The position numbers were made by a program, and so were the translations under genes. Shown here piece after piece: positions 1,192 through 60,447 of a stretch of 64,000 bases of DNA (position 1 is its first letter; each line of letters starts with the position of its first letter). Under the pieces are notes generated by a model. That model searched no databases. It was not told where the DNA came from and worked only from the letters and a program-made list of their open reading frames with translations. The DNA is from Antedon mediterranea (lineage: Eukaryota; Animalia; Echinodermata), in NCBI RefSeq assembly GCF_964355755.1, contig NC_092672.1:28712437-28776436 (forward strand). Reading direction: 5' to 3'.

Positions 1192-1216
1192 TTTAAGTTA
1201 AATTCGGTATAAGAAA

Positions 1217-6301: not shown

Positions 6302-6321
6302 TAGAAATGATATATATTGAG

Positions 6322-16365: not shown

Positions 16366-16400
<35 letters not shown>

Positions 16401-34400: not shown

Positions 34401-37400
34401 TTTAGAAAATGCATAAAAATAGTATATCAAAATAAAATTAAAATATATAGGAATAACATTAAAAATCATCAATAAATAGAAAAATCTTACTTACAGTCTT
34501 ACAACAATTGTTAAGCTGGTTGAATACGATCGTATAGTCGTAATAGCTGTATTTAAAATGAGTGAAACTTTTATATTCTTCATGATGCACGCGGAATGTG
34601 GAAAATTGAGTATTTTAAAGAATTTTCTAACTGCTTATTTCAAAATCAAAGCAAAGCATAAATATTCAACCAAAAAGTTTTACTTTTGATCTGTAATATG
34701 TACTGATCGAAAACAATAAAACACATACAATAATTATTATATGGCTTATTAAAGCTTTAATATTAACAATACATTTTACTGTTTCTTTTAAAGAATGAGT
34801 CTAGACGACGAAGATCAACAAACACGGTAGATGTTTATGTTGAAATCGATAACCAATCGCACAGTAAGGTCAATGCATTTACCCAAGATCCAGCCTTAAC
34901 GCCAACAATATCAAGTATTTCACCAACTTCAAGTAGTGTTCTAGGTTTGTTATTCTTGCTGATTTAATACAAATTTGTTGATATTGTTTTATGATAATGG
35001 GTTCTTTTACTAAATCCTAACTACAGTAGGTTGGGACAAGTTAGCCTATCAATTCTTATATACAATACCGGTATTAGATATAACATTAGTTACAATTAAG
35101 GTGAAAAAAGATTTAAAAACATGCATTGTAATTTAATACATCGGCTTCTTATAGGATTATTAAACACCATGGTTGAAATTTTAACTTTGTGTGCAAAAGT
35201 TTTACTTGATGTGCAAAGGTTTTACCTGTATGTGCGCGCGCGCAAAAGTTTTACTTTGTGTAAAATAGTGTTACTTGATTTACAAAAGTGATGATTGTAT
35301 AATTATCTTTTATAGGCCAATGCAGAGAAATTATGAAAAGAAAATTACTACAGAACTTTATTTATTTTAAAATATGCGTTTGCGATGTGAAATTCAGGGC
35401 TATGATGTTGTTTTAAATATTTTTTTTTTTTGGGATTTGGCGCAAAATTTATTTTGAATATTTTATTTTCTTTTTAGGAGGAGGCACCATTGTTATACTT
35501 GGTTCAAGCTTCGGTACCAAAGAGCCTATGGTCACTATTAATAAACTTGAATGTTCTGTGACATCATTTAATGACACCGAAATTCAATGTACTGTTCCTG
35601 GCAACGAACCTGGAATCTATGACGTGACAGTATCTGTGCCAGGAAAAGGTTATGCTAAAACTGGGTATGTTTCAAGCTATGCTTAAATAGAGATTTTATG
35701 AATGTGTCTTTTGATACTTGAAAAGAACTACAGCATTAGTATACAAGACCATTATCTAATTTTCTCTGAAAATGATTTTGCTTAAGTCAGTATAGAAGGA
35801 TTTAACTTAAAGTGGTTTTCACTTAGTAGACTTTTTACATTTCCTTCGACATAAGTGTAAATAATTATGGCCATTGTGTTATAGTAACATAAAATAATCA
35901 ATTCGAAATTATTTAAACATCCCACACGGGCAATTCAAATAAAAAGGTCTGAATTAAAATGATCTTACAAAATATACAAAATATCACAATACATATTACA
36001 ATATAACAAGAGTCAAAGTTCAAGAATTTAAGAGTCGGATGGCCACTGGCAAAAACGAATTTCTTTTCCGGTTTGTTCTACATGCCGGCCATCGAAAGCG
36101 ACGCCCATGAGGCATGAGTTTGAAATCACTGAACAAGGCATGGTTAAATAAATATCTTAATCCTGATGAATAATAATCAATATAAATATTTATTTTTTCA
36201 GACAACAATTTTCGTATGATCTTGTAATTGAAGGCATCTTCCCTGATCATGGTTCTCTGCAAGGCGGTACAACGGTATTCATTACTGGTTCTGGTTTTGG
36301 TACTAATACCTCTTTGGTTGATGTAAGTTTTGGTTTTGTGACCTGTGCCATCACAGATCTGAATAATGACCTGATTAAATGTACATCCGGGAGCTCGGGA
36401 GTTGTACATACTGTGACCAATCAAGGAAAACATGAAGGTATGTTGATGTTCAAATTAACAAATATGCCATTGGAATATTTATTAATCTAAAACTAAAATA
36501 CGTGTGTGATATACTAACATTGACCTATTAAATAATTATCATTCTGGCAATGATATAATAATGTTTACAGAGAAGTATAGATTCTGCTAAGGTCCAATCT
36601 TCTCTTTCTTTGAAAGACTCTTCCGAATATTGTAAATGCATTCTTAAAACAAGCTATTTAGGTTCAGGCATTTATCTATAAAATGCATTTTCTGCTCTTT
36701 TAAAGATTATGGAGTTGGTTATAAGTGGGATCCACAGGTGTTGAAAATAATGGCAGGAGATACAGTGATGTGGCAATGGTCAACACCAGCTCTTGTTGAC
36801 TCTGTAGGTTATACAGTTCAACAAACTGCAGATGCAGATTCGGTAGAATATGATGGTAAAGGGTTCTATGCAGGATCAAGCTCAAAAAGTGGTATGTTTG
36901 TCACTCATAACAACAAGTAGTTGTTTGAAGGGTTTTTGCTGGCATGTAGTCCCCTATAGTCTCTCATTGGCCGTCTTCGTGTACGAAGTTGTTGGTCATG
37001 ATATTTCATAGTGGTAGCAAAGGGCTATATGACACAGCATTCCTCCATTCCTTAAACAAAGCTGAATGAACCAGAACTCTGGTTAACCCGACACATCATG
37101 AACTATATTAATGTGACAAGTGTATAGGCTATTCTTTTAAACGCTTGGCCACTCAAGTATTATACATATTAAACCATTCACAAATATAATGAAACTTAAG
37201 GGAGATAAATTCTACTATTAATTGCCCAGTTATTTAAATGTCGTATCAAATTTAAATTACTTTATCAATAGTGCTAATTTTGTTAACCTTTTATATATAA
37301 TGAATATATTTAACATTAATCTATGTTTTTAAATAGGTACTTATTCTTACACATTCAACAACGAAGGAGAATATTATTATTCAAGTGGTCCTGTAAATTC

Positions 37401-40400
37401 TGATGTCCCAGAGGAAGACAAATTCTATCTAACTGGAGTTATCTATGTTGCTCCATTTGGATCTGTAGCTTATCCCCTGTCTGTAAAATTGAATGACATT
37501 TCTGCAAACCATGATGTCAGTGCTCAGAGCAATACTCCATCTGATAGTAGTTCTTGCCCAGGAGATGAAGACACTATATCTGGTTGTTCTTCAGCAATGC
37601 CAACCATAAGTTACACCTCGTTGTTCTCTTTTGCATTCTGGGATTGCAGTACAGCTACTATTGACGTCATTGAACCAGTGATTGGCTCAGCTGAGCAGAC
37701 TATAACTATCGGAGGATCTGGATTCAGTGATGTGGCTTGTGAGAATGTAGTTATGATTGGGTATGATCACACATGTAGCGTCATTTTCAGTAATGCAACT
37801 CTTATTCAATGCACTATCGAAACTAATAACTCACTGCTGGTTGGTTATTATCACGAGATATCAGTTAATGTGAAAAATCAAGGTTACGCTATGAATGTTA
37901 TTGATACGCTAGCAGCAAGAAGTTATATCTTAGTGCCTAGCATAACCTCTGTTGATCCATCTGAAGGTTCTCTAAATGGTGGTACCGTACTAACGATTGA
38001 GGGAAATGGGTTTTCTGCTTCATCTATTGATGAATTGATTGTTTCACTTGGACCAGAGTCTTGTCTCATTCAATCATTTAACTACACTCACATAATTTGT
38101 GCCACCACTTCTCATGATGTATCTGGTCATACATTTGATGTTGCTATCGAATTAAACCACCAGTCATCCATCAACATCGGTGGTCAGCCTTTCAATTTCA
38201 CCTACCAGCAACATCTGACAATGCAGGTTCAAGACGTTTTTCCAGATACTATTAGTGGTGCCTTGACCACCATCTATGTAAATGGATCTGACTTTGGTGA
38301 TGTCATCAGTGACATCACAGTAACGTTCGGAAATGTTGATTGTGCTGTGGTTGCTGTGAATAGTGAAGAGATTGAGTGTGAGGTTGGCTATGTCCCAGTA
38401 GGTGAACTGCCAATCACGGTCCATCGAAAGAGATACGGAAATGCAAAATTAGTAAATTTTGATAATGTATGGGGAAATGCTGTTATCGATACTATCAGCC
38501 CACAACAGGGAAGTACTGAAGGTAGAACTCTGATTACCATCGAAGGGAGTGGATTCCATACTGATGACACATCTGTATTAATTGATGGTGATGTTTGTGA
38601 TATTACTTTTGTTAACATCTCAATGGTCACATGTATCACAAACTCTCACTCAGCTGCCACTACAAACCTCCTTGTTACATCGAATGGGGAAGAGTTTTCT
38701 ACTCAGAGTTTTGAGTTCACGTCTTCGGCAACTCCAACTATAACATCAGTTTCCCCATCGTCTGGAATTTCTGGCGACAGTATCACAATACGTGGATTCA
38801 ATTTTGGATCATCGACAACAGATGTTGAAGTAACAGTTGATGGCGAAAAGTGCACAGTTGTAGGCAGTGTAACAGTGACAGAGATTATCTGTGAAGTTCC
38901 ATCACACGGCGCTGGAGTGTACACAGTAGAAGCTGCTGTCTTTAACCTTGGGAAAGCTTCATCAGTGGTAACATTCGAGTATATTCTCTCAATTGCTTCA
39001 AGTTTTCCAATTGATGGTAAGCTAAGATTACTTGTTGCAATATTACTTCAAAAGGAATCTAATAAATGTAAAAGATTAAATAACTGCCGAGACTTTATCA
39101 GTAATGGAGATGTTGTGATTATTCATCATCATCATTATGTCTCATTATTTTGCATCTTTTAGAATTATCAGATGACAAGATATTTGATCTGAATATCAAA
39201 ACATGGTTATAGTGGTGGTTATTTTGAGTTTCTTTAAAATTTGAATATGTTAATCTGTTTGGATCCTAACTGAATTACATCATGAAAAGTTAAATAATTA
39301 GTACTCTTAACATTTGTATTACATCACCTTGAATGTTTGCGCCCTTTTACAAATATTTGAATCATAATATTTGCCAGAGTGGGAACGGGATTTTAAATGA
39401 ATAATTCCAGTTCTGTAAACATGTTTCTATTTATCATTACAGGAAGTTTCGCTGGAACAAAAACACTTAACTTAACAGGTTCTTGTTTCGACGAAGATAG
39501 AACAAAGGTAACAGTTTGTGGTAACCCATGTGATGTCACATCAGGAACATATACATTTGTTCAGTGCCTAATACCGGCCAATGATGGAATTGGTAAGTTG
39601 TACGTTTACACTTGTTTCATATGTTTTAACTGGTGTTACTTTTGAAATGTAATTTTTATTATCGTTTTAACTCAAAAATAAATGTCACAGTGTTAACTTG
39701 AGCATGCTAGCTATTCTTGTTTGAAATTAGTTCTGCTCTAGAAGTTTCTTTTTAGAAGTATTGAAGAACATACAGAAAAAATTATTACAAATACATAACG
39801 GGGACCTAATTTTCTTCCAATACTAACTTATAAAGTGCAAATTGGTCTTGGTTTACTCTACCCTCTAGTTTATTATACTATTTTTCTTTGTTAACAGCTT
39901 CGTCTACAGTATCTTGTGACATTGTGGTTTTGGTTGACAGTGGATTGAATGCTACCTTGTCGGATGCATTCACTTACAAGTCTTCTTTAACAGCTATTAT
40001 CGACTCAGTAGAACCAACAAGAGGAGGAACGGGTGGAGGAACCGATTTGATTATTATTGGAACTGGATTCAGGTATTAAAACTTTTGTGTAGTAATTGTT
40101 TTATTGTGAACTTATACATAATACTCACATAGGTTATTTACAAGATGAATAATAAATAAGTTGTATATTAAAAAAAAATATACATTTATTATGTTTCTGC
40201 AGGTCGTCTGGCAATGTGGTGACTCTTGATGGTTCTGAATGCATCATTTCCTCTGAATCGACTACCGTAATAGAGTGTACAACAGAAGCTCACCAAGGAT
40301 CCATCAAGACTCATGTCAGAGTTGTAACAGATGACGATGACAACATCGCCACACAGGTAAGCATGCCATGTAACTCCTTGACCATTAAACAGTAGGCATT

Positions 40401-43400
40401 TGATCTGTAAAATTATATTGTCTAAAATTTACTAAACAGAATGTAGAGTAATATAGTCCTAAATTAATCATTTACGTAACTGCAAACAAAACATGCAGAA
40501 TGCCACTAATGTGGGTTATCTTTACCGTTATCAGGACAATGCGGAATATTATTACATAGACGTTTGGTCATCTGTTTGGACTTGGGGAGGACTTGAACCT
40601 CCCATTGCAGGTGACTTTGTCATAGTACCTGCCGGACAAACATTACTATTAGATGTCGATACACCTATACTATCAATGCTTTTAATTGAAGGTAATGTTT
40701 ATTTTAATGTTATTTCCATTTCTATTTAAATTAGCAACTTAGACATCTCTGTATTCATCACTGTAAAAACAGGGAAAAGAAACACTAAAACAGTTTGATT
40801 GTAATTATTCTTTTTCTTAGGAGGTGAATTTATTTTCGATGAAAAAAATATAGAGTTACATGCAGAAAACATTCTCATCACTGATGGAGGATTGCTACAA
40901 GTTGGCACAGAAGAAGAACCATTCCAGCACAATGCAACCATTATGATGCATGGTCACCCGAGGTCACTAGAACTTCCTCTTTTTGGCGCCAAGACTCTTG
41001 CTGTAAGAAATGGAACACTTGATCTACATGGTAACTACATTTCCTATTTCCACACATCAATACCATTTCCATGTGCAACCTAAAAAAATTACAAAAGTTT
41101 ATTTCAAAGTCACAGATTTGTTTTGCTATTAAAAATGCATTCTAAAAACTAGAATTTCTTTTAGCAAGACGCTGTGGCTCTAACAACACAATAGTTTAAT
41201 TTTGCGAGAATATGTTATTACTATACTTCTACTACATGTTTTACATTTTTGATCGAAACACAGTCTAGAACCTAGACTAAAATAAGACATACTTACACAC
41301 TTTTCGTTCTTTTGTAGGTATCCCAGTTCCTGTTACATGGACGCATCTGGCACAAACCGCTGTGGCTGGAAGCACTGAACTTGTGTTGGAACTATCCGTC
41401 ACATGGAATGTTGGTGATCAGATAGCAATTGCTTCAACTGGGCATCGGCATAGTCAGCGAGAAAATGAAATGGTTCGAATTGTTGGTAAGTATCGAGTAG
41501 CCTCAGTTAGCGCCTCAAATACAATTCTGGATATGTCACTGATGGTTTAATTTTGTTATTTACCCATTGGAATAGCCAAATGAATAGGCTACAATCTTTA
41601 TGTTTAGTAATAAGCTTAATGTTTAATAGAAACAAATTTAAATGCATGTATTTAGCGTAATACCAATATAAACAAACTCTACTTTGTATACAGTATATAA
41701 TTTATGTGCTAAATAGTAGAAATAAATACAAATGCACACTTTAACCCATCTCAAACGTAGGCCTACCATTGAAGAGTCTTGCTCGTATCCAGTAGACCTA
41801 TTCATTTAAAAGATAATTTTTTATTTATGTTAGATATATCATCTGATGGACTGACACTTGAAGTTGAGCCTGCACTTGAGTATGAGCACATCTCAATTGA
41901 ACAAACTCTAAATGGCGTGTTTTTATCAACTAAAGCTGAAGTTGGTCTTTTGACCCATAACGTTGTCGTCCGTGGATCAGTGCAAGACGAATGGACAGAG
42001 ACCATTGAAGCATGCGAGGAAGAATTCAACACCAGTAAATGTTTCTTTTACTCTTGGTTTTAACGTAAACGTATTACAGTGCATGAACAAACAAAATGTT
42101 CATGTTTTATGATATTTAAAGCATATACAAATAATGAAAACAAATTGAATGTAAATTGCTATTTGTTTTGCAGATCAATTTGCAACACAGACATGTTTCC
42201 AGGGCCGATATGGCGAGGAGATTGATAGTGATAAATATGGATCCCAGATAATGCTTTTCGGAAAATATCAGAATCAACAATTGGTAACAGGCCGTATTGA
42301 GTACGTGGAGGTGACGCACGCAGGACAAGCATTCCGTCTCGGACGGTATCCGATCCACTTTCATTTAAATGGTGACGTCAGTGGATCTTATGTTCGTGGA
42401 TGTGGAATCCATCATACCTTTAACCGTGCAGTCACAATTCATGCCGTAGACAACTTGTTAGTTGAGCATAATGTTGCATATGATATCATGGGTCACGCCA
42501 TCTTTATGGAAGATGGTATTGAAATGGGAAACACTATCCAATACAATCTTGGAGTATTTGTCAAAAGTAGCTCTAGTCTGCTTAACGTTGACGTAACACC
42601 TGCTGCATTCTGGGTAACAAATCCAAACAATACTGTGCGACATAATGCAGCTGCTGGTGGATCACATTTTGGGTTTTGGTACAATATGCCCGCACATCCA
42701 GGAGGCCCTTCTTATACAACATCAATGTGTCCCCGTAAAATGGTTATGGGTGAATTCATAAACAATACTGCTCATTCCCAAGGTTGGTATGGAATCTGGA
42801 TTTTCCCAGAATATCACCCAATGGAAGGTGGACAGTGTAACTCCAACATACCAACGCAGGCAAAGTTTTACAGTCTAACGGCATGGAAGGTAGAACGTGG
42901 CGCTGAAGCTACTGCCGTCGGCGGTGTCCAGTTTCATGGTTTTTTGATTTCAGATGCTGATAAATCAGGAATTGAATATCAATCAATTGATAGTGACATT
43001 CCATTTGATAATGATGGGGCACTTGTCAAGGATTCCACAATTATTGGATACAGTGCCATATCGAATGCATCCGAATGCACATCAGCTGGTATCCATGGTC
43101 CGAAGAGTTCTGGTCTGACCATTGATGGTGTCCAGTTCATTAATTTTAATGAAGGCCGTTGTGCAGCTCTGCGTGCTTGTGCTCATTGTAAAACAGATCA
43201 AGGTGGCTTCAAAACACGAGTGAATAATCTTGAGTTTACCGACTCTCCAAACAAGGCTGCGTTCCAATGGCAACATGAGCATTGGTTTGAAGATTTGGAT
43301 GGTACACTAACAGGATCAGCCAATCAGATTGTATTACCCAACAATCCTAATCTTCCACCAGCTCATTGTACTAACGATGATGCATTCAGTTTAGATTTAG

Positions 43401-46400
43401 ATGGAGTGTTTTGTGATGATACGGTAAAACTTCACCGCATGGCATTCAACGGTGTTTCTCCATCCTCTCTTCTTTATAAAGATACCTTATTCACGAATCA
43501 ACATGGTACAAGCCGTATACCATACCATAAGAAACGTATAACACATCCTGAAGGTTGGATGATAACATTAATAGAGGGTGACACATACAACTTCATTTTC
43601 GAAGACGTTGATCATGTGACTAACATTACGTACAGCGCAGGTTTCTATAATTTCAACGATGGTGACTATGTTGTTATGAATCATAACTTTACACAAAGTC
43701 CTGATGTGTTTGCAACGATCGGGTACGTTACAAACAGCACAAAACAAATGGTGACATACGAAAACAATAGCTATGGAGAATATTATTTTAATAATGATAA
43801 TAACAACCTTTATTACTTAGGTAAGTTGCAAATACAGTATATATAATATAAAGTAGCACGAAAAAAGAAAAAAAAATGCTGAAGTTAGCTTTATCATAGA
43901 AGATATCACAATGCAATGCAATGAATCAAATAAATAGTTTTTGATTTAACTTTTGATCACAACACAATAAAAGATGAAAAATTATACAGCTGGTAATTTG
44001 ATATACACCAAAACAGATGATTCTCCAAGCTAATGTATGTGTATCTATAGCTTTGTATTCTTTAATGTATCCAAAACATGAAACATATTTTACCTTTTGA
44101 ATAATTTGAATTATATTATACTAAAGCTTGAGTCTTTTACTTTTATCTGTAAAGTAAAGTATCGATTTATCTACTATATTTTAATTTTTTCTTTAGTATC
44201 CGGAAAAGACATACATTTAACTGAAGGAGACACTTTGCCAATTAATCTGCAAGTTTACAGATGCTATTACCTTGACTGTATTCCACCGGTTCCTGAACCT
44301 CCTCCAGAAGGCAGACCAGATAACGTTTCTGTGCTTCTTTGGTCCACGGCTGAGGCTTGGGAAGGAGTGGAGGATGGATGGGGTGGCAATGATAATGGAT
44401 CATTTGTACTGCCAGCAGACGGTGATGATGTCATGATCATGCCTGGTATGTGTGATATAATAAAAAATAATCTCTTCTGGAAAAAATTAAGAGCGTTTTA
44501 ACTTTGGTTTTATTTGTATATTTAACGGCATATTTATTTCCACAAAATCTCACTATAGTAGGCCTAGGCCTAAACAATCCAAACAGGATGCGGAGTCTCA
44601 GTGATATTGTTTTTTCTTGAAGAAAATCTAGATGCTGTGGCAAAGGGTCTGGGATATTAACCACCGACTCATGGTTAATGTCATTGTTGTAATTTAAGCT
44701 TTCTTTTGTTTGTAGGGAAATGGGTAGTTGCTGATGTTCCTTTGCCAAATATGAATCGACTCTATATTTATGGCACCCTGGAAATTGAAGATACCAGAGA
44801 CAATTATATCAATGCAACTTATATATTTATTCATGGCGGTACTTTGGTTATTGGATGGGAGAAATCGCCATTTCAGCATCAACTACAAATTTTCTTAAAT
44901 GGAAACCATTTCACTGAAGACATTCCACTACCAAACGGACCAAATATGGGAGCCAAAGTTTTGGGTAAGTCATGGCATTACAATATAAAGTATGGTAAAT
45001 CTGCAATCTATTTAGTCTGATAGAAAGAGTCTAATAACCTGCAGCTAAATATAAAGAAGAAACACGTTATTCATCAACTCTAACTAAATCATGTTAATAT
45101 ATTTAGGTGTATTTGGTCGATTGGAGATGCATGGAGTTTCTCCCAATATCACATGGACACATTTGAGCAGTTCGCTCGTCGCTGGCGATGAAATCATCTA
45201 TCTAAGAGAAAATGTAACTTGGAAAGTAGGAGATGAGATTGTTGTGGCATCAACATCGTATGAGGCTTGGGAAACTGAAACGTTCATGATAATTGAAATT
45301 ATTAATAAGCATACTGTACGAATCAATGACACAGCCAAGTACAAACATATAGGTATTTATAGATTTTTTTAATTCAATAACATATCAAGTGTTTACAATT
45401 TTTCTGGAAGAACTTTTCAAACAACTAATTTACGAAGCCTATCAGTATTTATTTGCGTATCCTATCTTTAAGATATGAATAACCCCATTATTACATTTCA
45501 GCTGAAACGGTCACTCTTGAAGATGGATCTCTGACATACACCGAAGCTGCTGAGGTTGGTCTCCTTACGAGAAACATTCAAATTATTGGTGCTGACTACA
45601 GTAATTTGTTTGAAGAGTCATTTGGAGCTAGAGTTCTGATTGGCAAATTTAATCAAGACGGTATTGAATACAAAGGTAATAAAATCAAATTATATAAATA
45701 TTGTTGTGACGTATTATTTTATCAATTTACCTGGAAAGCAGCATTAAGTGAATCACAGTGTCGCTGCACAATACATGGTTACCACGCGTTTTAAAAGGTA
45801 AATCCAGATAAATTGGTTATTGATTAAAGTTCTTGCTGTTCCTGTTTCCGTAATCTCTTAACTTTATTTTCTATTTTAGGTTATGCTAAAATCTCAAATG
45901 TTGAATTTAAACATTCTGGTCAAGAAGGCTGGACCGATTTTTATGACCCACGTTATTCAGTTGCTTTCTTGGATATTGGAGAAGTTACTGTAGAAAGCCC
46001 ATCGTTTGTACGAGAATGTACATTCCATAATGGCTTCAGTCCTGCTATCGGAGTGTTCGGTACTTCAGGACTAACAATTCAGGATAATGTAATTCACCAC
46101 ACAGTTGGAGCAGGTAAGCAATGGCAAAATACTTCTCTTTCCCTTATATAGTAACATTTTAGATTAATCTGCTGTTCTCCACCAATTTAGATGAATATGC
46201 TTTTTTTTAAATTTTAACTTTGACATTACTAAGGTATTATTGCATGGGGTAGTGATCATCAAATCCTGCATAACCTAGTAACACTTACAGTATTTCCTGG
46301 TACATATCAAGACCGCTACAATGCTGAGGATATATCATGGCCAGCAGGTATTGAAATTGAGAGCTCCAGAGATGTCATCCTACAAGATAACACTGTGGCA

Positions 46401-49400
46401 GGCTCTGAGAGGGTGCTGTACCATATCAGTGGTGAGATCTGTGACGTTGAAAGTCAGTGGAGCAACAACGAAGGGCATACTTCTTTGCACGGTGTTCATC
46501 TTATGACGGGGGATGGTCAGAGAGACTGCACACAGATTGCGAATTTCTTCATCTGGAAGAATTGGGATTATGGAGTCTTTTTCCAAATTTCGAGTTCCGT
46601 TTTAATGACTGATCTTGTTCTTGCTGACAACAACATAGGGGTGATGCCATTTGTCATTGGGCCATCTTCTCTTAGTCATGAAGCTGTTGATAAGTATGTG
46701 ATTATGGATTCATCGTTTATAATTGGTACAAGCCCGTTCTTTGATTGCGATGAGTTACAGGTTGGTTCAGTAATATATAAACATATTCAATAAATATGAA
46801 CATTTTTATTATTCATTTTAAAAGATGTACTTATTTCTGTTTTTCAAATGTTATTATATTGTCATTTTGCATTCTGTCAATATATATATAGTATATATGC
46901 ATACGTGACTTTTACTCGAAAGGAACATTGTCAAAGGACTTTCTTACTCTTCTACCTTCTTTTTCTTAACGTGTACTGCTAATACCATTCCATTGTCTAC
47001 TCACTTAAATTATAAATTCTGATTAAAATATTACATTTTGCATTAACATTTTTATGTAAATATTTCAGAATCAACCGGAGAATGCAGGTCAAAGTGCAAA
47101 ACAGCGTGCACCTCGTGGTCCAGACAACGGAAATGCTGGATTCGTGTGGGCAAATTTCATGTCTGGTGATAATGGTGCTCCATTTTTTCCATTTCATGGT
47201 ATCCATAATTATCCAGCTATTGCTGGAAGCACAAGATTGCAAGGTATTAAAAGCATGACATACGCTGGTTCTTACTTAGAAAAAGCAACAAATGCCATTG
47301 TTTGAATTCTATTGCAGGAAACGCAAAGTTACAATGTATTATACTCATACTTATTCGGAAAACATAAAAATGCTATTGTACTGTTTTATCATATATGTCT
47401 TCCCTAATATCGGAATACATTTTGGTGAAACTTACTAAATGAAAATATTTCAACACAATTATTCATTTACAAATAAAGCTATTTTGCTCTTTCTTATAAA
47501 TAGATGTCACATTCGCTCATTTTGATACTGCTTGTAATAAAGATCAATACGCTATTATGACGAATCCATCAAATGATGATGGCATCCACCCGATGTCCGC
47601 TGTAGGTACAAAGATGGTAACAGTCAGAGATGAGAACAAGGTTTACATACATAGACCTAATTTAGGGTAAGTACTAATAGTATGTATCTTATATATCTAC
47701 GGACCTCGTGCATTTATCCAGGTTACGTCATGGTAAATCATTGTGTATCCTCACTTGCTAGTTGCATTATTTTCATCAACCAACCACTAGTCTACAATAC
47801 TTTTTTATTTAATCTTAATAGTAAGGTTAATCCTTCTGATTGCGTGGACATGGATTGTGATGCATTTAAGAAAGCAATGATCAGAGATGAAGATGGTGGA
47901 ATTCTAGGAGGATCACGGCCTGGTTATGTTATTCCTGATTCTGCATACGAATGGGATGGAGATCCGAGACGTGGACTTGGTGATTATAGAATTCCCAACA
48001 TGATGGTTACAGACATCGATGGTAGTAAAATCCCTTATGATGAAAAATGTCCACATAAAGGTTGGTTGTCTGCTTTAATTTTTCAATCGCTGATCAACCG
48101 ACTAGTCCAGTAAAAGTGTGTTGTAGCTGTGATCTTTTATATAACTTTCTATTTTCTTTAAGGTATCATTGGTACAGAAGGCTGCATATGGCATGACTCT
48201 TGGCAGGCTTTTGAATGCTATGACTATGATTACGCTATGTTAATTATTGAAAGTCTTGATCCGGACACAGAAGTACGACGTCTTTCACCAATCGCCATTG
48301 GGTCTAACGGTTATGTTGATTTGATAAATGGACCACAAGATCACGGCTGGTGTCATGGGTACACATGTCAAGAGCGCATCAGCACATTTATGTCTATCGT
48401 TGCAATTGGAGAGACTTATGAGATGTATATGAGTTCAACAAATCCTCAAATGTTACGACTTCATTTCCTGAACACAACTCCAGATCAGAAAATAGTAGTC
48501 GGCATCTGGTATGCCAATCCTCAACGCTTAGATGTGTACCATCAAGGTCGCTATGTCATGCCAAATAATGGGCAGATGGATGGAGATACGTTTATATGGG
48601 TTCCAGAAGATCCAAACGGACCAGATGATCAGTTCATGCCAACTCCTGACTCCAACATTTATGGCGAGAACTATTTTGATCGCGATTGGCAGACTCTTTG
48701 GATACTTATACGTGGTAGTGACCCGATTGACATCATCACTACACCGGTTATAATGGTTGACGTTGGTGTGGCTCCAGTTGATGTTGATGACTTCTATGAA
48801 GAAGATCTTGTTAACAATCTTGCCAGTTTGCTTGGTGTTGATGAGTCTCAGATTCGAGTCGTTGATGTTGTCAGAGAAGGTGGTCGTAGAAGAAGATCCA
48901 CAGAAATTCAAGTTTTAATGGAGATTGGAGAATCACCAAGTGCATCATCGAACAGCTCAGAGAATTCAGGTAGACCTAAATATGTTCTTTCTTGTGTATA
49001 TAATAAGAAAATATCGTTCTTTAACCATATTAAAGTATCACATAATCTATCCAGATTTCATCTTTTTTTTCAGTTTCATGTGTTTAGAAATGAGTTTCAA
49101 TTAAAGTTGATTTCATTGACTATTATTTTAATATCTAAGCAATAATTAATATTTCCTCTTTATAGGCAATTCAACCCTTGAATATGATGAGTTAGTTAAT
49201 CTTCAAGCAGAAATAGTTAATGCAGCACAAACCGGTACTTTGTCCGATAGTCTTGAAGTTGAGGTTACATCATTAGCAATGACCGATCCTTCTCCCCCAG
49301 CCGAAGACCCAACAGGAGGTGTCAAAGCAACAAATGAAACAGGAGGTCCAAGTACAGGCAATGAAACGTTAGTCACATTTTAAGCCTTCAAAGAAGGAAT

Positions 49401-52400
49401 AATGTGTTGAAGTAGAGTTTCTGTAGAGTTACTGTATTAAAGAACTGACTTGTATCGTCTTGTCAAAAGTCATAAATTGTATTCTCAAGTGTAGCTTGCA
49501 ACAAATATAACCCTAATGCCTATATCATTAAAAAACAACACAACTAATTGGTTCACAGGTATTCTAAGAAGCAAGCTGAAGAAGAGGCGACCAGTGACCC
49601 AGGAGTAGAAATCATCTATCAATTTCCAAGCACGATGAGCATACGTGTACAGCCGGCTGATGCTACGGAGAACCATCCATTTGGGGTTCAACCTTGTATC
49701 TGTATACTGGATACCAGTGTAGGTTTAACACAATTCTTTCTAAACTCCAATATCAAGCTTGGTAATACACCATACGTTTGATACAAATATATTCTGACGG
49801 AAAAAAGGAATTATTCAATGATTTGTTATTTTTTTCAGGGTGAAATTGTGGAAAATCTAGGACATTCTTCACATCCATGGAAAATGCAGGCAGTTTTGCA
49901 AAACCAAGGAGTATCTGATGCAGAGCTGGTCAGCAACAACACTGTAGATATAATTCATGGCTGGGCCAACTTCACTGATCTTGCCATTAATCTGCCGGGA
50001 AGTGGATACTTCTTGGAATTTAGTATTGTTTATCCCAATACATCCACGCTAGAAGGTACCAACTCAACGGAGTTTTCTGTCATGGAGAGCGTTTTCCACA
50101 TATCAATCGCTGATCAACCGACTAGTCCAGTAAAAGTTTTGGAGAAATTTGATGTTCAGTTTAATCTAATTGAAGATTTTACAATGGATATTGCAGAACA
50201 TCTGGATTCTAAGGTTGGTGTTGTTTTATTCATTATAAGTTAACTTCAGTCGTAGACTAGTGTATCCAATCTAAGAGCAACTTCTGTTGAAGACTAAACT
50301 ACAGTACCTACAAGTCACTCCCATAGAAAATCTAACCCTAACCCTATTTTATATACTACGACACTCAATAAGTTTCCATTAAGCTAAATTTAAGACCATC
50401 AATAATAATTACATCCAGTTACAAACTTCCGCATTAAATCAAAATCCAAATTAATGTCATGTTCCAACGTTCCAATATGTCCTATTTTCAGGATTACAAT
50501 TGGACAGCTAACATAAGTTTATACATGCCGGAAAACTATCGGGGCATTTTACAAGGCCAGTTGACTACTCAAGTGGACCTGACATCAGCACAAGGCGTCT
50601 TCTACAACTTATCGATCAGTGCTACTGGTTTTCAATATGTCTTACACATTGAAGTGGTTACCATCCCAATCAGTGACTTTTACTTGTCTGCAAAGTTAGA
50701 TCCTTTTGATGTAAGCAATGTTGATAAGCATACAGAAAATCCAGTCAAAGTAGGCTTGAAGTTTTACGGAGATTATGCAACAGTTGCCGCAGGAAAAGAA
50801 GACTATCTTGCAATCAACTTCATTAATAATTTTGCTGTTTCATATTCAAATGTCACTATTTTTTCAGTAGAAATCAGTGAAGGTAAGTTCACAATCTGCA
50901 AATTGAGTGGTTGCTAAAGTTCAATATTTTTTTAAGGATGTTTGTCACTTGGTTTCATCAGGGAAGAGTTAAATTACAGGGAAGAGTTAAATTTAACTGC
51001 TTTCATCATCATTAATTGTTTGATGACTGGAGATTCTGCAAGAACAAACGAAGCTATATATCTTTCTTATTGTATTGTATTTTTTACCATTGGTAGAAAA
51101 TAATAAATGCTGAATTATTATTAAAATCTTGACCTCATTGCAGGTTTCGATAACGTTAACCTCTTTTTACAAAAATGTCAGGTTCAGGTTCATAACCGTG
51201 GAGATAAAAAAAACAAAGGAAGTCATTTATCGTGACCTCTGCAGGTCGCATATCATTAACATTGTACAATGTTTTCGTCATTTCAGGTTCAATCATCATT
51301 GATTTTATAATGACTGGAGATACTTCAAACACACTAAAAGCCATTCATCTTGACCTCGATGCAGGTCGCATATCATTAATCTTTGATGGACATGTTCTTG
51401 AAGCAGATCCAAGTTATATGATGCTTGATGGTGAACCTTACGAGTCTGAAGTTGTAAGTCAAATAGTTTGTTTTTATTTAATATACAACCGGTAATTATT
51501 TCATTGCATTAATTTATTTCAGAACAATTCAGAATTAATTATTAATATGCCTATACTGTATGGTACAAATATGTTTAACTAAACTAAGTACATTTTTTGT
51601 AATGATCATTCAATAGTAGTAAGTTTTTGTGGTAATGCGTTTCCTAAAATGAAGTAAAATAAGGTAATCTTTAAGTTTCGTTTGTTATGCTATAATCGCC
51701 TTCTAGAGCATAAACGAAATATTGAGACATACTCAGCTTTACTTTATTTCCTTTATGAAAGCGCATGGTTTACCGCAAAATAAATCTCTTTACTAGTATT
51801 TATTCATCATCTTTAACCAATAATATGTTGTGTTTTAGGACGATCCGTCTGGTCTTCCAATATGGGCCATTGTGTTGATTGTAATAATAAGCTTATTAAT
51901 GATTTTAATCATGGGAGCTGCTTTGGTCAGAGTTTGCTACAGTCCAAGTAAGTATCAATTGTTTATGAGGATAGAAAATAACAAACGTTACTGTTACCAT
52001 GAATCAAATATAGGCCTAATAAGTTCAATTTATCCACGTACGCCCAGATCAACACAGGGTTACTCTTCCCAGCTTCTCGAACTTCACTAAATTCTTATTG
52101 GATGCTACACACACAGATCCTCTAAATTTCAGATGAAGATGAGCATTTTCATATTTTTCAGTCAAATGCGTTTACAATGTCATCGATTATATTATTGAGC
52201 AACGCATTGCTTTTTCAACCTTTGACATCAATTGACATTTCCAGTAGTTTTCATTTGAGAACCCACATCGCCTTAAACTTCTTACTAAAGCGTTTCTGGT
52301 AGCTACTAAAAATATATCCGTTTTAAAGGCAGGCTGTGTATTTTGAGTCTCTAAGATAAGGAGTGCCATAATCTGCCTTCATATACAAAATTAAGTTTGT

Positions 52401-55400
52401 AATTGTTAAATACATATGTTGACATAGTGTGGACACCTTATTCGTCTGTACTCTAATATCCCGGCTCAAAGAGATCTATCCGAGGAAACAAACAATGAGA
52501 ACATACAAGAGACCAAGGGGACGACTCAAAATCACATGGATGAAATTATAGAAAATGAAAAAAAACCAAAAATAAACAAGTCGATGTACACTTTGGAGAA
52601 TAATCGCTCTGATTAGAGAAGTCTTGTTAAGTGCGCTATGTCCTAAAACGTTCAGCGTCCATGAAAATGATATGTTTGCAGTACAGCATGTTGATTGAAA
52701 TGTCGACAAACGCAACCGTTCTTTTAATAGTGATTTCATCATACAGCAATATGTTAAATACTTTGATCATTATACACCTACCATGTATACGTTTATATAT
52801 ACTATTTGTCATTTTTTTTAATTATTGTGAATTAAAATTAAATATAATATGCGTGTTTGTTTGTAGAGCACAAAGTTTCTAAAATAGAGAAAATGGCACT
52901 GACTGAGAAGGTATCTCCAGTTAAAATGTCAGGCTATGCGAATGAATCTGAAGAAGAGACTTCACTGAGTGCTAGCAGTGGATCTAATCAACTATTGTAA
53001 GTTTTATGCCAAGTAAATATTTAGAATATTTTATTCTTCTTTATGTTCAGTATATAGTGCTATTTTAACTACTGTTTATTTGTACACTAATTAACTGTTG
53101 ATCGGCCCTTTTAGAATTCTCTTCTTTGGAAAATTAACAAGCATGAGTTTAGTTTATCTTATTTATTTATTCTATTTTATTTCTATACAATTTTTAACAA
53201 GCGCCTTACATTACAACAAGGCCAACAGCCATTAAGTCGCGTGCTACAATGCATAGTGATACCGGACCGACAGACAAACAGACCGACAGACAGACAGACC
53301 GACAGACAGACGGACCGACCGACATAGTGAACTATACTGACCGAAATTACTGAACATGTTTAAAAATGTTGAAATGTTTAAAAACATTTATATTTTTTTA
53401 ATTTACACGTGCGTAGCCTGTTACTTTTGACGTGCTCGTATAACGTAATTTCGAGTTGAAAAGTAAGTCAAGAAAACAGAAATCGGGCAAAAAGAGTGCG
53501 CAATAACATTTAACGCACAGTGCGCGCGCAAAAATCTGCGCACTCATGGCAATTTTGTAAACGCTTAAAATTGCCTGAAACGTACTCTTATTTCATCGAA
53601 AATAAATTTTAAAAATTTTAAGCGCGCGTACGCATGCGTTACATGCGCTACGCACGTAATTGTATTGCCATATGATGATTTATGCCCTGAAATTTATGAG
53701 TACCAAATTTTATTTAATTGTGATTCATGGTTGTTAAGATATGATTACAAACGTGATTTCGTTAAATCGTGCGTAGACCGCGTAATTTTTTATTGCGCAC
53801 CGTGAAAACATAACCACAGCGATTCCTGGCCATAAGGAATATTCTGTGAAAAATTGACTTAGCTAGATTAAACTGATATCAAGATAAGGTCATAAAGCGA
53901 TAACACGCATAGTGATACCGGACCGACAGACAGACAGACAGACCGACAGACAGACCGACAGACAGACCGACAGACAGACAGACAGACCGACCGACATAGT
54001 GAACTATAGAGTCGCTTCCACGCGACTAAAAACGATACCTTGAAAATGTACAGAAAGAAAAACAATTCAATAATTATGTTATGTCATTTCTAAAAATATG
54101 TAGGAAGCCTCTTACAAAAAGGTCTTATACAACAAAAAATTAGAACAATTAAGAAACAGATGATAATAAAAATTAGGATATTTATGTGGCGCTAGTAAGG
54201 TTTCATGGTCATCATCGAAATAGTAAGAGAAAATTAAACTGTCTCAACATTTTTTGGAGAATGACGTGTACCGTAGGGCTCTAAAGGAAATGTACAGCGC
54301 GTAAGAGGTAGAATGAATCTTAACGAAAAAATTACGATGCATTAAGGCCAACTCATATAAGCATCGTACGACGAGGCCCGAAGAGACGTCTGAACTCGTC
54401 GGTGCTGTCTGAGTTGAATCCCGACGAGACGAGTCTTAATGAGAGAGCATAGTTTTAGGTTGTCGGAAGGTTTAATTTTCTGCCGATGAGACGACTCTGA
54501 GTTGGCTTCAGTACTGGCCATTCTTTTGAAGCTGTTACAGCAGAGTTGTTTGCTTATTTTGACAGGATTTCTATGGATGAGTTGCAAGTGCCTAGGGCAT
54601 CTTCAAGTCGTAGCAAGTCACCAGGTTTTAACACGCCATCTAGAACACCAGAAGTAATGGTAACAGCCCTGCCACCAGGTTTTGCCGACGGTTCTCACGA
54701 ACAAGGTAAATTCTTTAAGAAAGTGTAATTAGATTTTTTTTTATATGGCATTGTAGCTCAGGTAAAATTTCACAATTTACTGTCCGATTTATGAGCAATG
54801 AAAAAATTATCTCACTTAAGTATTATTGGCAATTCAAGCTTGGGCCAATAAAGAGAACATTCTTTGAAATAGTAAATTCTCATAAAGAACCACTTTTATA
54901 GCAATACTTCTGATTTGCTTATATAATTAAAAAGGATAAATTATTCTCTTTATCAGTTATGGAAGATCGAGCCAATATGTATGTCATGTTATCCACGCCT
55001 GAACGGTCATTCAAGAAGATCGGTTTACTATCCGTAAACCTAGTTGGAACTCTTAGCACTCTCCGTGCAGATCTGCAGGAAAATCTGGGTAGCAAACTCC
55101 AACAACTACCATTCGCTTTCTTAAGTGAGAGCCTTGTTGATATTGATGGGGCTAGTGAGCGAAGGAGGACGGTCCATGAGACATATGCGTCTGACAGTGT
55201 TCTTATTCGGTACATTGAAGGCAAAGGTAAGTTACAAAATGAAAGAAAATATTTGACATGATAACATGTTTTCTCTTCAATAGTAGAATAAAAAGCATGC
55301 CATATGAAAGAAAGATTTTGACTTCTTTTAAACTAGCATTTTTTAAACTCTTTTAATTAATGGGATGGGAATTTTGTGATTTTAATTGACATCTGGTAGC

Positions 55401-55679
55401 CATTGGATTGTTCAGTTTTTAACATTTATGAAAAGGCTATTTTTTCACTGCAGAATTATTTTGGCATATGTGTTTTTACACTCAATAATAATTTTATCTT
55501 GTTATAAAACAATTATACATAAATCAACAATTGTTTTTACAGATTTATCGAAGTTGTGTATCTGTGGTTTGATTGGTCAATTTGAATGCTCTTTGTGTCA
55601 TAGTCAAACTTACTGTAGCCCCACCTGCCAGTCATCTGATTGGGCGAAGCACTGCAAAACATGCAGTGGAATGATGTAG
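9328..55679 (+). CDS. pkhd1l1: Fibrocystin-L (PKHD1L1-like) giant single-pass membrane protein, multi-exon and apparently intact, with a MYND-finger cytoplasmic tail
   Basis: Exon 1 at 9328-9385 (MATMRVHLFVFTCCALWKF, signal peptide). Following exons include 17487-17567 (TIG, VTSIWPRRGSYEGATRIAISG), 17701-17842, 18024-18117, 18442-18499, 19652-19757, 20453-20506 and 20915-20982. PA14 exons lie at ~22600-25010. Large exons are 37337-39016 (TIG array), 42174-43820 (PbH1; HAGQAFRLGRYPIHFHLNGDVSGSYVRG) and 48163-48969. The TM exon is 51839-51947 and the stop is at 55679. The splice phases checked by eye were consistent. Confidence 0.93.
10540..10584. promoter_or_regulatory. Pair of RFX X-box-like motifs in a conserved intron-1 element
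   Basis: GTTGCCATATCAAC (10540-10553) and ACCACCATGGCAAC (10571-10584); the surrounding block aligns with 63812-63935. Confidence 0.5.
11656..13083 (-). mobile_element. Non-autonomous Helitron
   Basis: Minus strand begins TC after A (13083) and ends CTAG before T (11656). Terminal hairpin CTAGATGGTACGC-N11-GCGTACCATCTAG; no TSD. The flanks rejoin into a host repeat also seen at 16335-17050. Confidence 0.7.
13719..14836. mobile_element. Non-autonomous TIR DNA transposon (~1.1 kb)
   Basis: CCCCTTTTACACTATCACTG ... CAGTCGATAGTGTAAAAAAG inverted termini, internal ACACCGG/CCGGTGT repeats, and partial copies elsewhere in the window. Confidence 0.65.
14841..15005 (+). mobile_element. Nin/Deu-domain SINE remnant
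   Basis: GGAGAAGGACTATAAACC...TTTCGAGACGAGTAGGGAGTTACCACGGTG resembles the conserved Nin/Deu central domain, recalled from memory and not aligned. Confidence 0.5.
16397..16664 (+). mobile_element. Penelope-like element terminal-repeat fragment inserted in (TA)n
   Basis: Carries a minimal hammerhead motif and is flanked on both sides by (TA)n tracts. Confidence 0.55.
16499..16535 (+). ncRNA. Minimal type I hammerhead ribozyme
   Basis: GCA-CTGATGA-A-GGGC(TAGTGTT)GCCC-GAA-AGCT-C-TGC: conserved core, stem II, palindromic AGCT stem III, UC cleavage site and stem I GCA/TGC. Confidence 0.75.
16694..16870 (-). mobile_element. tRNA-derived SINE fragment
   Basis: Minus strand ATCTAATGGTTAGGAC...CCGAGTTCGAGTCTCGG has A and B boxes followed by non-tRNA body sequence. 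Confidence 0.6.
17055..17287. repeat. Local tandem duplication (~140 bp period, 2 copies)
   Basis: AAAATAAGATAACATAGAAATGTTTGTC...CGGATCACTTAAGC...ATTACCCCTCGT occurs twice. Confidence 0.8.
18770..19505 (+). mobile_element. Helentron-associated non-autonomous element (HINE/DINE-1-like), nested in a MITE (~18640-19562)
   Basis: (GTCG/GTCT)n microsatellite near the 5' end and a CACGCGACT subterminal repeat with a 3' stem-loop. Near-identical to the reverse complement of 53216-54032. The host has ATTTACACAGA/TCTGTGTAAAT inverted ends. Confidence 0.75.
19783..19929. mobile_element. ~145 bp MITE
   Basis: AAGCTCTGTCTAC...GTAGACAGAACTT TIRs; same family as 6163 and 25364. Confidence 0.7.
21290..21514 (-). 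mobile_element. tRNA-derived SINE
   Basis: Minus-strand head GTGGCTTGGTGGTTA (A box) ... GCGTTCAAGTCCC (B box) followed by non-tRNA body. Confidence 0.6.
24127..25008 (+). CDS. pkhd1l1: PA14 domain exons of fibrocystin-L
   Basis: YSSRYRGYFVAPYDGVFKFMIYSDDQSELYFS and LTGGNHYYIEAYLREGYGSAYINVG are PA14 signature segments. Confidence 0.85.
25364..25509. mobile_element. ~145 bp MITE
   Basis: AACTCAGTCTGCACTATTAAACT...AGTTTGATAGTGTAGACAGAGCTT TIRs. Confidence 0.7.
27770..29700 (-). mobile_element. 5'-truncated, frameshifted L1/Tx1-clade LINE (RT C-terminus to zinc knuckle)
   Basis: ORFs 29224-29601 (PIKFLGIYIG...WEKRKISFFGKIKVIKTLALSKLIY), 28501-28974 and 28107-28478 (CEYCNEEVENEKHMLFTC) are consecutive pieces of one ORF2. 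Confidence 0.85.
32415..32560. mobile_element. Small MITE (related copies at ~32885-33003 and ~7700-7785)
   Basis: GGTCCCACTA...TAATGGAAACC inverted ends and internal GACCAATCAC/GTGATTGGT palindromic boxes. Confidence 0.5.
35925..36150 (-). mobile_element. 3' end of a Rex1/Babar-like non-LTR element
   Basis: HALFSDFKLMPHGRRFRWPACRTNRKRNSFLPVAIRLLNS* matches the typical H.LF..LPSGRR.R...RT.R..NSF.P.AIRLLN C-terminus. Confidence 0.7.
36707..37460 (+). CDS. pkhd1l1: Cupredoxin-like domain exons of fibrocystin-L
   Basis: WDPQVLKIMAGDTVMWQW ... GTYSYTFNNEGEYYYSSG, a plastocyanin-like pattern without obvious copper ligands. Confidence 0.65.
37337..39016 (+). CDS. pkhd1l1: Large exon encoding several IPT/TIG repeats
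   Basis: Repeated I.SV.P..GS..GGT.LTI.G.GF...V.....C.......I.C motifs. Confidence 0.92.
40535..43820 (+). CDS. pkhd1l1: First G8 domain and PbH1 beta-helix exons
   Basis: YIDVWSSVWTWGGLEPPIAGDFVIVPAGQTLLLDVDTP...LPLFGAKTLAVRNGTLDLHG, followed by the 531-aa PbH1 ORF. Confidence 0.92.
44197..48969 (+). CDS. pkhd1l1: Second G8 domain, PbH1 region and SEA-like segment with furin site
   Basis: LPNGPNMGAKVLGVFGRLEMHG; VNPSDCVDMDCDA; DLINGPQDHGWCHGYTCQERISTF; LVNNLASLLGVDESQIRVVDVVREGGRRRRS. Confidence 0.92.
50740..51453 (+). CDS. pkhd1l1: Juxtamembrane SEA domain with G^SIII motif (split over exons 50492-50882 and 51287-51453)
   Basis: VKVGLKFYGDYATV...FINNFAVSYSNVTIFSVEISEG|SIIIDFIMTG matches the SEA fold pattern and the GSVVV consensus. 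Confidence 0.7.
51839..51947 (+). CDS. pkhd1l1: Transmembrane exon
   Basis: DDPSGLPIWAIVLIVIISLLMILIMGAALVRVCYSP; phase-0 acceptor and phase-1 donor. Confidence 0.9.
52400..52650 (+). mobile_element. Degenerate RTE-clade LINE remnant
   Basis: GHLIRLYSNIPAQRDL ... KRPRGRLKITW motif. Confidence 0.5.
52867..55679 (+). CDS. pkhd1l1: Cytoplasmic-tail exons: Ser-rich linker, beta-grasp-like domain, MYND-type zinc finger
   Basis: Exons 52867-52996, 54566-54705, 54957-55226 and 55543-55679 join in frame. The last exon encodes LCICGLIGQFECSLCHSQTYCSPTCQSSDWAKHCKTC. Confidence 0.85.
53216..54032 (-). mobile_element. Helentron-associated non-autonomous element (HINE), inserted after the gene duplication
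   Basis: Minus strand starts TTTTTAGTCGCGTG, carries (GTCT/GTCG)n and a 3' CACGCGACT plus hairpin. It is absent at the paralogous site 2535-2546, which is an A-run. Confidence 0.8.
54342..54510. mobile_element. MITE, paralog of 2848-3022
   Basis: TAAGGCCAACTCA...TGAGTTGGCTTCA. Confidence 0.6.
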
Positions 55680-56968: not shown

Positions 56969-58232
56969 ATTTCAAAATGGCCAAAATAAAAACAAAAAGT
57001 GTTCATATCTTGGCAACTATAAACAGTAGAGACTTGATTCTGGTGTTAAATTGTTCACAAACCACATATTTCTATTTGCTCTAATGAAAGGTTTCGTCCA
57101 ATAAGACCGGAAATGACGTTTCTTCCAGTTTGACCTTTGACCTCTTATCTGTATATCTCAGTAACTACTGATCATTTTCAATCGATTTTGGTGTAATTTT
57201 GTTCAGAATAGAGACATTTATATTTGTAGTAATGAAACATTTTCACATAAAATGACTGGAAATACAATTTATAACCTTTGACATATATAATTATGTGAAC
57301 AGACTGTATGTTGTTTACACCTAATTTTTTTACCGAAATAAATGACACGGAATTATTATTCTGAATTTTTAACTTTTGATGTGATAGGATAGGCATAAAG
57401 TATGACAGATCACTGAGCTCATCTATGCCGACTTGTTTGCTAAACTGTGATTTGTCAATCGTTAGATAAAAATGTTGGTCCTCTCTCCTTCATCTTTAAA
57501 AAAAAAATGTATTATACCATATGGACAATTGTCTGAAATAAAAGTTGAATTGAATTGTTAGATGCCATTTGGAAATATTTTAGATGTAAAGTAGCATTCT
57601 TTCGTTGGCCTCTTTAATGTTGCATATGAGACAAGTTCGGAAAGTTCTCATTTTCATGAGTTAAGAGAAGAGAACACCGTCTTTCAAAGTACTTACTACA
57701 AACTTTATGCATTTGTGCAGTAGACCTACTTTCATTAGTCAGAAACTCAGATAATTCTTGTTCATTTTCGTTGCATCTAACAAAATGTACTCCATTTTTA
57801 TGGTAATGGGCCTTTGCTGTAAACCTTTCATCTGAATCCTTTTCCTCGATTTTCTCTAGTCATTGATTTTTTAGCAAAATCCGAACCAAATCAATTCGTA
57901 AAAGACATCTCAATATAATTATTCAAGTAATCCTCAAATTAGTGACATGGACCTACAATATACTGTTCTGTACAAGACCTTTTAAGCATCCACCTGTGAA
58001 CTTTCACTTTAAAGGTCTTGGTCTCCTAATCATACAAGAAACAATGTCTAATTTAATCAATCAAAGTAGTGGGTCAAGACAAAGAAGGGGTGTAAGACCA
58101 TCCACATACAAAGAAGGGGTTATAAGACCATCCACAGACAAAGAAGGGGATGTAAGACCATCCACAGAAAAAGAAGGGGGTGTAGGACCATCCACATACA
58201 AAGAAGGGGTGTAAGACCATCAGCAGACACAG
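56969..58232 (-). repeat. Left arm of a long inverted repeat (truncated copy of the element at 60445-62949), with ~5 minisatellite units
   Basis: Reverse complement aligns continuously with ~61530-62800. Confidence 0.9.
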
Positions 58233-58234
58233 AA

Positions 58235-60315: not shown

Positions 60316-60447
60316 TCATGACCAACTTCTTCTAAAATTAACGTGGCCTATTCTGCCTGATGTCCCACACCCTTCCCTACACGTCTTGCTGCAATGTTCC
60401 CACCAATCATGTGACTGTCAAGTGGGGCTACAGTACGTCTGATTATG
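60316..60447 (-). pseudogene. Inverted, truncated pseudo-exon of a fibrocystin-L MYND finger
   Basis: Minus strand translates HNQTYCSPT*QSHDWWEHCSKTCREGCG..., compared with the intact HSQTYCSPTCQSSDWAKHCKTC; TGA replaces a Cys codon. Confidence 0.8.

Follow-up and report, generated by a model that had tools for sequence, protein, structure and literature searches.

A fibrocystin-L gene of Antedon mediterranea encodes a cytoplasmic tail with a predicted beta-grasp domain and a MYND finger

A fibrocystin-L gene, contained in a stretch of 64,000 nucleotides of the Antedon mediterranea genome (contig NC_092672.1, positions 28,712,437 to 28,776,436; hereafter, the window), encodes a receptor-like protein whose transmembrane segment (TM) is followed by a cytoplasmic tail, carrying a predicted beta-grasp domain and a MYND finger. 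There is hardly any doubt that this architecture is real; it is also ancient and apparently undescribed, and we infer below a function for it. The fibrocystins are a family of proteins associated with kidney disease and deafness. Their route of inward signalling is at issue, human PKHD1L1 being almost tail-less and the PKHD1 tail unstructured and poorly conserved.

Structure of the gene

All features of the gene lie on the plus strand, and are reported by their position within the window. Two full-length homologs, P0141 and P0144 (4665 and 4782 residues), align colinearly over their entire length with the exons between 17487 and 55679. Those encoding the ectodomain (17487..51453) were assigned by Pfam and colinearity: TIG, G8 and CEMIP beta-helix families match the upstream exons, and a PA14-like region, TIG repeats and then two G8 plus parallel beta-helix regions follow each other in the layout of the fibrocystin-L/PKHD1 family. 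The exon encoding the first beta-helix shares 83% identity with an Antedon mediterranea database entry, with which it forms a sister pair supported at 100/100 in the tree. A candidate first coding exon, signal-peptide-like, is located at 9328..9385; it is the sole hydrophobic ATG-to-donor exon found by scanning positions 4300-17480, and its phase-1 donor fits the acceptor at 17487.

An earlier note, made by a model from the letters of this DNA, had proposed that the TM exon ends in a phase-1 donor, with no stop codon, and that four downstream exons are spliced to it in phase, adding a Ser/Pro-rich linker, a domain of about 90 residues and a Cys/His finger. Both points hold. The TM exon (51839..51947) is followed by tail exon 1 (52867..52996), encoding basic stop-transfer residues and a low-complexity linker; tail exon 2 (54566..54705), encoding the Ser/Pro-rich linker; tail exon 3 (54957..55226), corresponding to the putative beta-grasp domain; and tail exon 4 (55543..55679), which includes the MYND finger (codons at about 55557-55664) and the stop. 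Each of the five exons is bounded by AG and GT at these coordinates, and together they form a single frame of 261 codons, with one terminal stop, which is still open after adding three further upstream ectodomain exons, back to 49839. In the spliced product, the hydrophobic segment is followed by about 90 low-complexity residues, by an exon-sized domain of 89 residues and by the finger. The tail thus spliced on after a clear TM is 225 residues long.

Transcripts joining the TM exon to the tail

One of five sequencing runs, X1, was taken by guess to be RNA; it skips introns, several of which have zero depth. Its assembled contigs, coming from a single probable RNA run, show the existence of a spliced form, not its level. 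All four junctions that the earlier note had indicated for checking were seen as spliced X1 contigs with GT..AG ends. The joint 51947>52867, from the TM exon to the tail, has a depth of 77 and a short side of 42 letters; 52996>54566 has a depth of 84.8 and a short side of 37 letters; 54705>54957 and 55226>55543 are found together on one contig of 496 nt, at a depth of 186. Upstream of the TM, the joint 51453>51839 (GT..AG) was seen at a depth of 65, with a short side of just 25 letters, while 50882>51287 is absent from the X1 joint list. Transcript cover runs past the stop, to about 56257. Within X1, no read-through was seen into the intron following the TM exon: the bin 51932-52135 shows a depth of 6.04, exactly what the last 16 exon bases yield. 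Since the depth after the TM donor is fully accounted for by exon bases, no short-tail form is visible in this run, nor are transcripts stopping after the TM exon, which had been named as evidence against the fusion.

These data bear on the possibility that the tail exons belong to a neighbouring gene, joined to the ectodomain by read-through or by gene prediction. The Antedon and Amphiura models do separate the tail from the ectodomain, and among the assembled contigs of the one RNA run none spans the whole join, from the ectodomain through the MYND finger. Against this, a stop-less TM exon is spliced to the tail with no intron read-through, ectodomain and tail are found in a single model in seven species, and even the Antedon fragment starts within the ectodomain and runs through the TM. 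We consider such a joining highly improbable.

The 89-residue domain

The domain encoded by tail exon 3 found no match in Pfam or in PDB sequence searches. Its fold was predicted from 19 aligned sequences, with a pLDDT of 91.6, and shows the beta-beta-alpha-beta-(alpha)-beta topology of solved ubiquitin-like domains (UBLs); a beta-grasp (ubiquitin-like) fold is thus confidently predicted. By comparison with 48,161 chains, the model best matched the UBL of USP7 (Z 9.4, rmsd 2.5 A over 81 residues, 7% identity), followed by the PI3K adaptor-binding domain (8.5), TINCR (8.3) and the Rap1-binding SPN domain of SHANK3 (8.2), with talin/kindlin F0 also among the top matches; many ubiquitin-like domains tie at Z-scores of 7-9, and these values reveal nothing of function. 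When the AlphaFold model of the linker, beta-grasp domain and MYND finger of Amphiura P0133 was used in Foldseek, ubiquitin-like chains alone were listed.

A resemblance to ubiquitin-like and SPATA1 N-terminal folds had been guessed in advance, and both the AlphaFold/Foldseek check and the Atlas model of the Amphiura homolog agree with it. The closest predicted look-alikes in the Atlas are TIR proteins (TM 0.79), DGK-iota (0.78), GTPase-containing proteins (0.75-0.77) and SPATA1 (0.74), all below the Atlas bar for naming a family, which was reached by a likeness to UFM1 (TM 0.59); Atlas feature scores were all below 0.9. The likeness to the beta-grasp domains of TIR proteins, of DGK-iota (PF23578) and of the SPATA1 N-terminus, which extends over 82-92 residues of predicted models, is structural; at the sequence level, none of the 19 aligned members matches PF23578 or any ubiquitin family. 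The domain defines a beta-grasp family for which Pfam has no model. In all rows of the alignment, the C-terminal diglycine is missing and the domain continues directly into the linker preceding the MYND finger; since it has no diglycine, it would be an integral interaction domain.

The MYND finger and the linker motif

The finger scores 30.5 bits on the zf-MYND profile (PF01753), above Pfam's curated cut-off of 22.7, so that the profile check put forward in the earlier note gave a positive result. All eight zinc ligands (seven Cys, one His) are present in nine of nine fingers, and the first ligand pair is always CxC. The residues regarded as likely contacts for proline-rich ligands in MYND fingers, Trp, Gln and Tyr (PMC6837996, seen in part), are also conserved: Tyr and Gln in all nine, Trp in eight, with a Tyr replacing it in Owenia. 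The conservation of these contacts suggests that the finger may bind zinc and proline-rich peptides. By sequence, the best PDB matches of the finger profile are DEAF1 (E 3e-7) and ETO. The C4-C2HC ligand set and the Tyr/Gln/Trp contacts are shared with DEAF1, ETO/CBFA2T1, ZMYND10, SMYD2/3 and ANKMY2; unlike these, which have a CxxC first pair, the finger described here has CxC and ends the tail of a type I receptor.

MYND fingers had been said to occur normally in soluble proteins, a generalisation to which an exception is USP19, an ER-anchored enzyme carrying a UBL and a MYND finger (PMC13349892). USP19 thus resembles the tail in its membrane anchoring and in the pairing of the two domains; as far as the consulted part of that source describes it, it differs in having both within the USP catalytic domain, a C-terminal anchor and no ectodomain.

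The earlier reading of the sequence overlooked a motif in the linker, immediately before the beta-grasp domain, formed by [TS]PxR[TS]P, a hydrophobic stretch and LPPG ([TS]PxR[TS]P-x6-LPPG, about 54633-54683). Its conservation is similar to that of the MYND finger: the commonest residue is shared, on average, by 6.28 of 10 rows, versus 6.14 in the finger and 3.61 in the remaining linker, the segment having been picked after viewing the alignment of the ten tails. The PP of LPPG is kept in all ten tails, Holothuria and Owenia retaining PP alone. SP and TP sites are targets of proline-directed kinases. PPG followed by a hydrophobic residue, a pattern fitted by seven of the ten tails, is described as a ligand of GYF domains (PMC12171015, seen in part). 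In the AlphaFold model of the Amphiura P0133 segment (pLDDT 63-68, pTM 0.57), LPPG is undocked, so binding of LPPG to the MYND finger of the same tail finds no support in the monomer. Inspection of the tail by eye revealed no obvious nuclear localisation signal.

Taxonomic range of the tail

Single gene models including ectodomain, TM, beta-grasp domain and MYND finger were found in seven species: a starfish, a sea cucumber, an urchin, three hemichordates and the annelid Owenia. The Holothuria model P0007 is without any TM. In Antedon and Amphiura the models are split, the tail being annotated apart from the ectodomain: Antedon P0001 starts in the ectodomain, includes TM and beta-grasp domain and ends before the finger. 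Saccoglossus P0143 ends after LPPG.

Several searches contributed to this set. By using the beta-grasp domain as a query, one of 134 candidates matched, the Antedon fragment lacking the finger. The ectodomain retrieved the whole tail in Acanthaster, Holothuria and Owenia, among the 120 of 197 matches listed. An exhaustive search gave 18 matches, 15 of which were kept, including a full-length Glandiceps protein (4619 aa), an Amphiura fragment with linker, beta-grasp domain and finger, and 12 exon-sized fragments; the other three (P0126, P0134 and P0138) were repeat-driven chance matches, and were dropped. With the Glandiceps C-terminus, 5 of the 1369 sequences that were scored matched: the finger was present in Glandiceps, Ptychodera, Saccoglossus and Lytechinus, the fifth match being a second Saccoglossus model, without a finger. 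Since word-based searches miss distant relatives, the range found is a minimum.

When the tail profile was run on 165 proteins, 23 strong matches were obtained, mostly its own members; none came from the chordates, molluscs, flatworms, orthonectids or crustaceans of this set, where most such models are truncated. About 14 proteins without the tail do reach a terminal hydrophobic segment: five from vertebrates, three from molluscs, two from Intoshia and four which group with P0118, taken by us to be a sponge entry from its gene prefix. Proteins of this sponge group combine a TM with an unstructured tail; in two fibrocystin-L proteins among them, P0048 and P0164, the tail is 192 residues long and contains PPPY, a WW-domain-type motif.

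Among the ambulacrarian genes found, the MYND tail is the rule, and it is present in one annelid. The earlier suggestion of a candidate undescribed architecture stands in so far as no description of a MYND-tailed fibrocystin-L was found in the open-access literature, subscription journals and supplements being outside the scope of the search; it has to be amended because the architecture is not limited to one species, and zf-MYND is already listed, by automatic database annotation, on six of these proteins.

Relationship to chordate PKHD1L1 and PKHD1

Vertebrate PKHD1L1 shares with the window gene PA14, TIG repeats and two G8 plus beta-helix regions, in the same order, with an identity of 45-51% over the first beta-helix region. 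It differs at the C-terminus: the human tail is given as 8-9 residues (PMC11043200, PMC13424714; both seen in part), versus a TM and a 225-residue tail here, and platelet PKHD1L1 is reported to be GPI-anchored (PMC13566292, seen in part). PKHD1 (fibrocystin/polyductin) is similar in its related ectodomain, convertase site, single TM and tail of about 200 residues; its 192-residue tail is said to be of low complexity and confined to vertebrates, and the word 'zinc' is absent from the consulted part of a 2026 review.

Two trees were built. The first, based on the first beta-helix region (60 rows, 557 columns), recovered an ambulacrarian clade (100/98), placed chordates with molluscs, flatworms and Intoshia (100/99), and Owenia with crustaceans (92/95); a mixture model, applied to 34 of these rows, agrees with it. 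In AU tests on 24 rows of the same region, one deuterostome clade was rejected (p 0.00013), as was one protostome clade (p 0.0002), whereas Ambulacraria plus Owenia was not (p 0.055). For the second region, 33 of 39 candidates were kept by coverage, Antedon standing in for the window gene. Here Owenia fell within the ambulacrarian group (91/96) and the deuterostome clade was again rejected (p 0.007); after removing nine long or redundant rows, under the mixture model, teleosts were joined to molluscs at 99, and the p-value for the deuterostome clade was 0.0015. The place of Owenia hence differs between the two regions, and its union with Ambulacraria was never fully supported (91/96 and 86, besides the AU value above). 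Chordates are represented by three teleosts in the second-region trees, and amphioxus, named cnidarians and PKHD1 are absent from the trees; rate or composition artefacts could have joined chordates and molluscs.

Since chordate PKHD1L1 groups with tail-less mollusc genes, and a deuterostome clade is rejected, the tail-bearing genes probably form an ancient paralog lineage, separate from that of chordate PKHD1L1, rather than reflecting a loss of the tail in vertebrates. The window gene departs from the chordate-type PKHD1L1 group on both counts examined: in place of a short tail or a GPI anchor it has 225 cytoplasmic residues, and the grouping expected for a member was rejected in all three tests (p 0.00013, 0.007 and 0.0015). 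On the evidence of the trees, the contrast drawn earlier with the few cytoplasmic residues of vertebrate PKHD1L1 probably compares paralogs, not orthologs. The simplest reading would be that two lineages existed in the bilaterian ancestor, with the tail on the one that chordates lack; the tree data fit equally a gain of the tail in one lineage and its loss in the other. These trees call into question the view, found at review level, that short-tailed FPC-L is simply the ancestral form.

Possible processing of the ectodomain and possible roles of the tail

Upstream of the TM, the sequence includes an RRRR site of the proprotein-convertase type (48885..48896), at the position of which R-x-[RK]-R is found in 13 of 18 homologs checked, including all nine from Ambulacraria and Owenia. 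A membrane-proximal domain of about 100 residues follows, encoded by two exons (50743..51430, start approximate), and contains a G-S-hydrophobic motif whose GS is nearly invariant in 14 aligned homologs. We take this motif to recall SEA modules; the domain is SEA-like by pattern alone, having no match to SEA in Pfam and a non-significant one in PDB (E 2.4). Vertebrate fibrocystin is reported to be cut by a convertase, an ADAM and gamma-secretase, with its tail reaching the nucleus, and to go to cilia by way of the same tail (PMC13424714, seen in part).

Given a human protein with almost no tail, and a tail conserved in the animals studied here, the tail-bearing branch likely signals through a built-in docking module, and we infer direct signalling by the tail. 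It is quite possible, on the analogy just described, that the receptor uses its tail as a signalling output of its own, in the form of a docking module freed by Notch-like cleavage. Following the precedent of vertebrate fibrocystin, the ectodomain would be cut at RRRR and shed closer to the membrane, and intramembrane cleavage would free a tail of about 225 residues. The MYND finger might then recruit partners of the PxLxP/PPPLI type, such as co-repressors, and the non-conjugatable beta-grasp domain dock a second partner, while proline-directed phosphorylation of [TS]PxR[TS]P could gate binding at the adjacent LPPG. This model of processing is taken over from PKHD1, which is only distantly related and has an unrelated tail.

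The tail may instead remain membrane-bound, serving there as a scaffold or as a module for ciliary targeting, with the MYND finger doing in cis the work of free MYND adaptors, which act in trans on ciliary membrane proteins, and the beta-grasp domain docking a small GTPase or a kinase; this we regard as conceivable, if somewhat doubtful. It would accord with the ciliary traffic directed by the fibrocystin tail (PMC13424714, seen in part) and with the MYND protein DAF-25/Ankmy2, said to localise a membrane guanylyl cyclase to cilia (PMC2991253, seen in part), as well as with the PI3K adaptor-binding, SHANK3 SPN and talin/kindlin F0 domains among the fold matches, DGK-iota and GTPase proteins among the Atlas look-alikes, and the GYF-type ligand in seven of ten tails (PMC12171015); yet tied Z-scores of 7-9 carry no functional signal, and a conserved convertase-type site fits shedding. 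That the tail mainly governs receptor turnover, its UBL-like domain and MYND finger recruiting proteasome, p97 or deubiquitinase machinery, appears improbable: the best fold match is indeed a USP7 UBL, the membrane-anchored USP19 combines the same two domains (PMC13349892, seen in part) and the [TS]P sites might act as a phosphodegron, but identity to the USP7 domain is just 7% and no USP19 chain is found among the 46 PDB sequence matches of the tail profile. Taken together, the convertase-type site, the membrane-proximal domain and the precedent of fibrocystin processing favour the release of a docking tail over both a scaffold and a turnover role.

A more detailed scenario, rather unlikely as a whole, would have a bilaterian ancestor with two fibrocystin-L genes, the one lost by chordates being a Notch-like receptor whose tail, freed by shedding, recruits co-repressors directly through its MYND finger, under phospho-gating beside LPPG. 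If true, this would be a receptor equipped with a nuclear effector domain of its own, and PKHD1L1 could not be taken as the family's ancestral state. The branch from annelid to hemichordates offers two folded interaction domains, as predicted, and a conserved phospho-motif in tractable animals such as Lytechinus, and the tail may serve as a handle on the pathway downstream of a G8/beta-helix receptor.

A second tail copy and repeated sequences in the window

The tail exons of a tandem paralog are located at 2175-2304, 3074-3213, 3402-3671 and 4013-4146 (+), and keep an open frame, one codon shorter; the tail is the only part of the paralog falling within the window, its TM exon and ectodomain lying beyond it. 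The two tail copies had been estimated by eye to differ by about 14 silent and 8 replacement changes, and a recount over 223 codons gave exactly 14 and 8 (dN/dS 0.14, Fisher p 8e-6). Exons are 96.6% identical, versus 85% for two introns. Such a pattern indicates that the tail is under purifying selection. An X1 contig, at a depth of 44.8, bears the diagnostic letters and a junction of the paralog. The second copy was also considered as an allele or an uncollapsed haplotype, and this was rejected on account of its tandem position, the 85% intron identity and the presence of both forms in X1.

Other repeated sequences were observed in the window. Gypsy-like gag (DUF7041) and aspartyl protease frames at 2-1197 (-) lie upstream of the first tail exon of the paralog, and probably sit inside its TM-to-tail intron. 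A palindromic-looking repeat just upstream of tail exon 2 is common to both copies (54394-54435 and 2870-3020), and is also present elsewhere in the genome, judging by loose ends. A high-copy element with GACA-repeat ends occupies two introns in opposite orientation (53245-53976 and 18785-19460, 95% identical); its depth exceeds 10,000 in X1, and it is absent from the paralog's intron. By eye, part of the exon 51287-51453 recurs as short, degenerate repeats in the intron before it (51130-51290). Within another intron, at 28110-29604 (-), are the broken remains of a LINE-like reverse transcriptase, which gave a zf-RVT match. Downstream of the gene, an inverted duplication (56969-58235 and 61503-62801, 87% identity) lies on either side of a 30-bp tandem array (60437-61690), which retains long open frames in several phases; beside this array, at 60379-60447 (-), the 3' half of the MYND exon occurs a third time, in decayed form and containing a stop codon.
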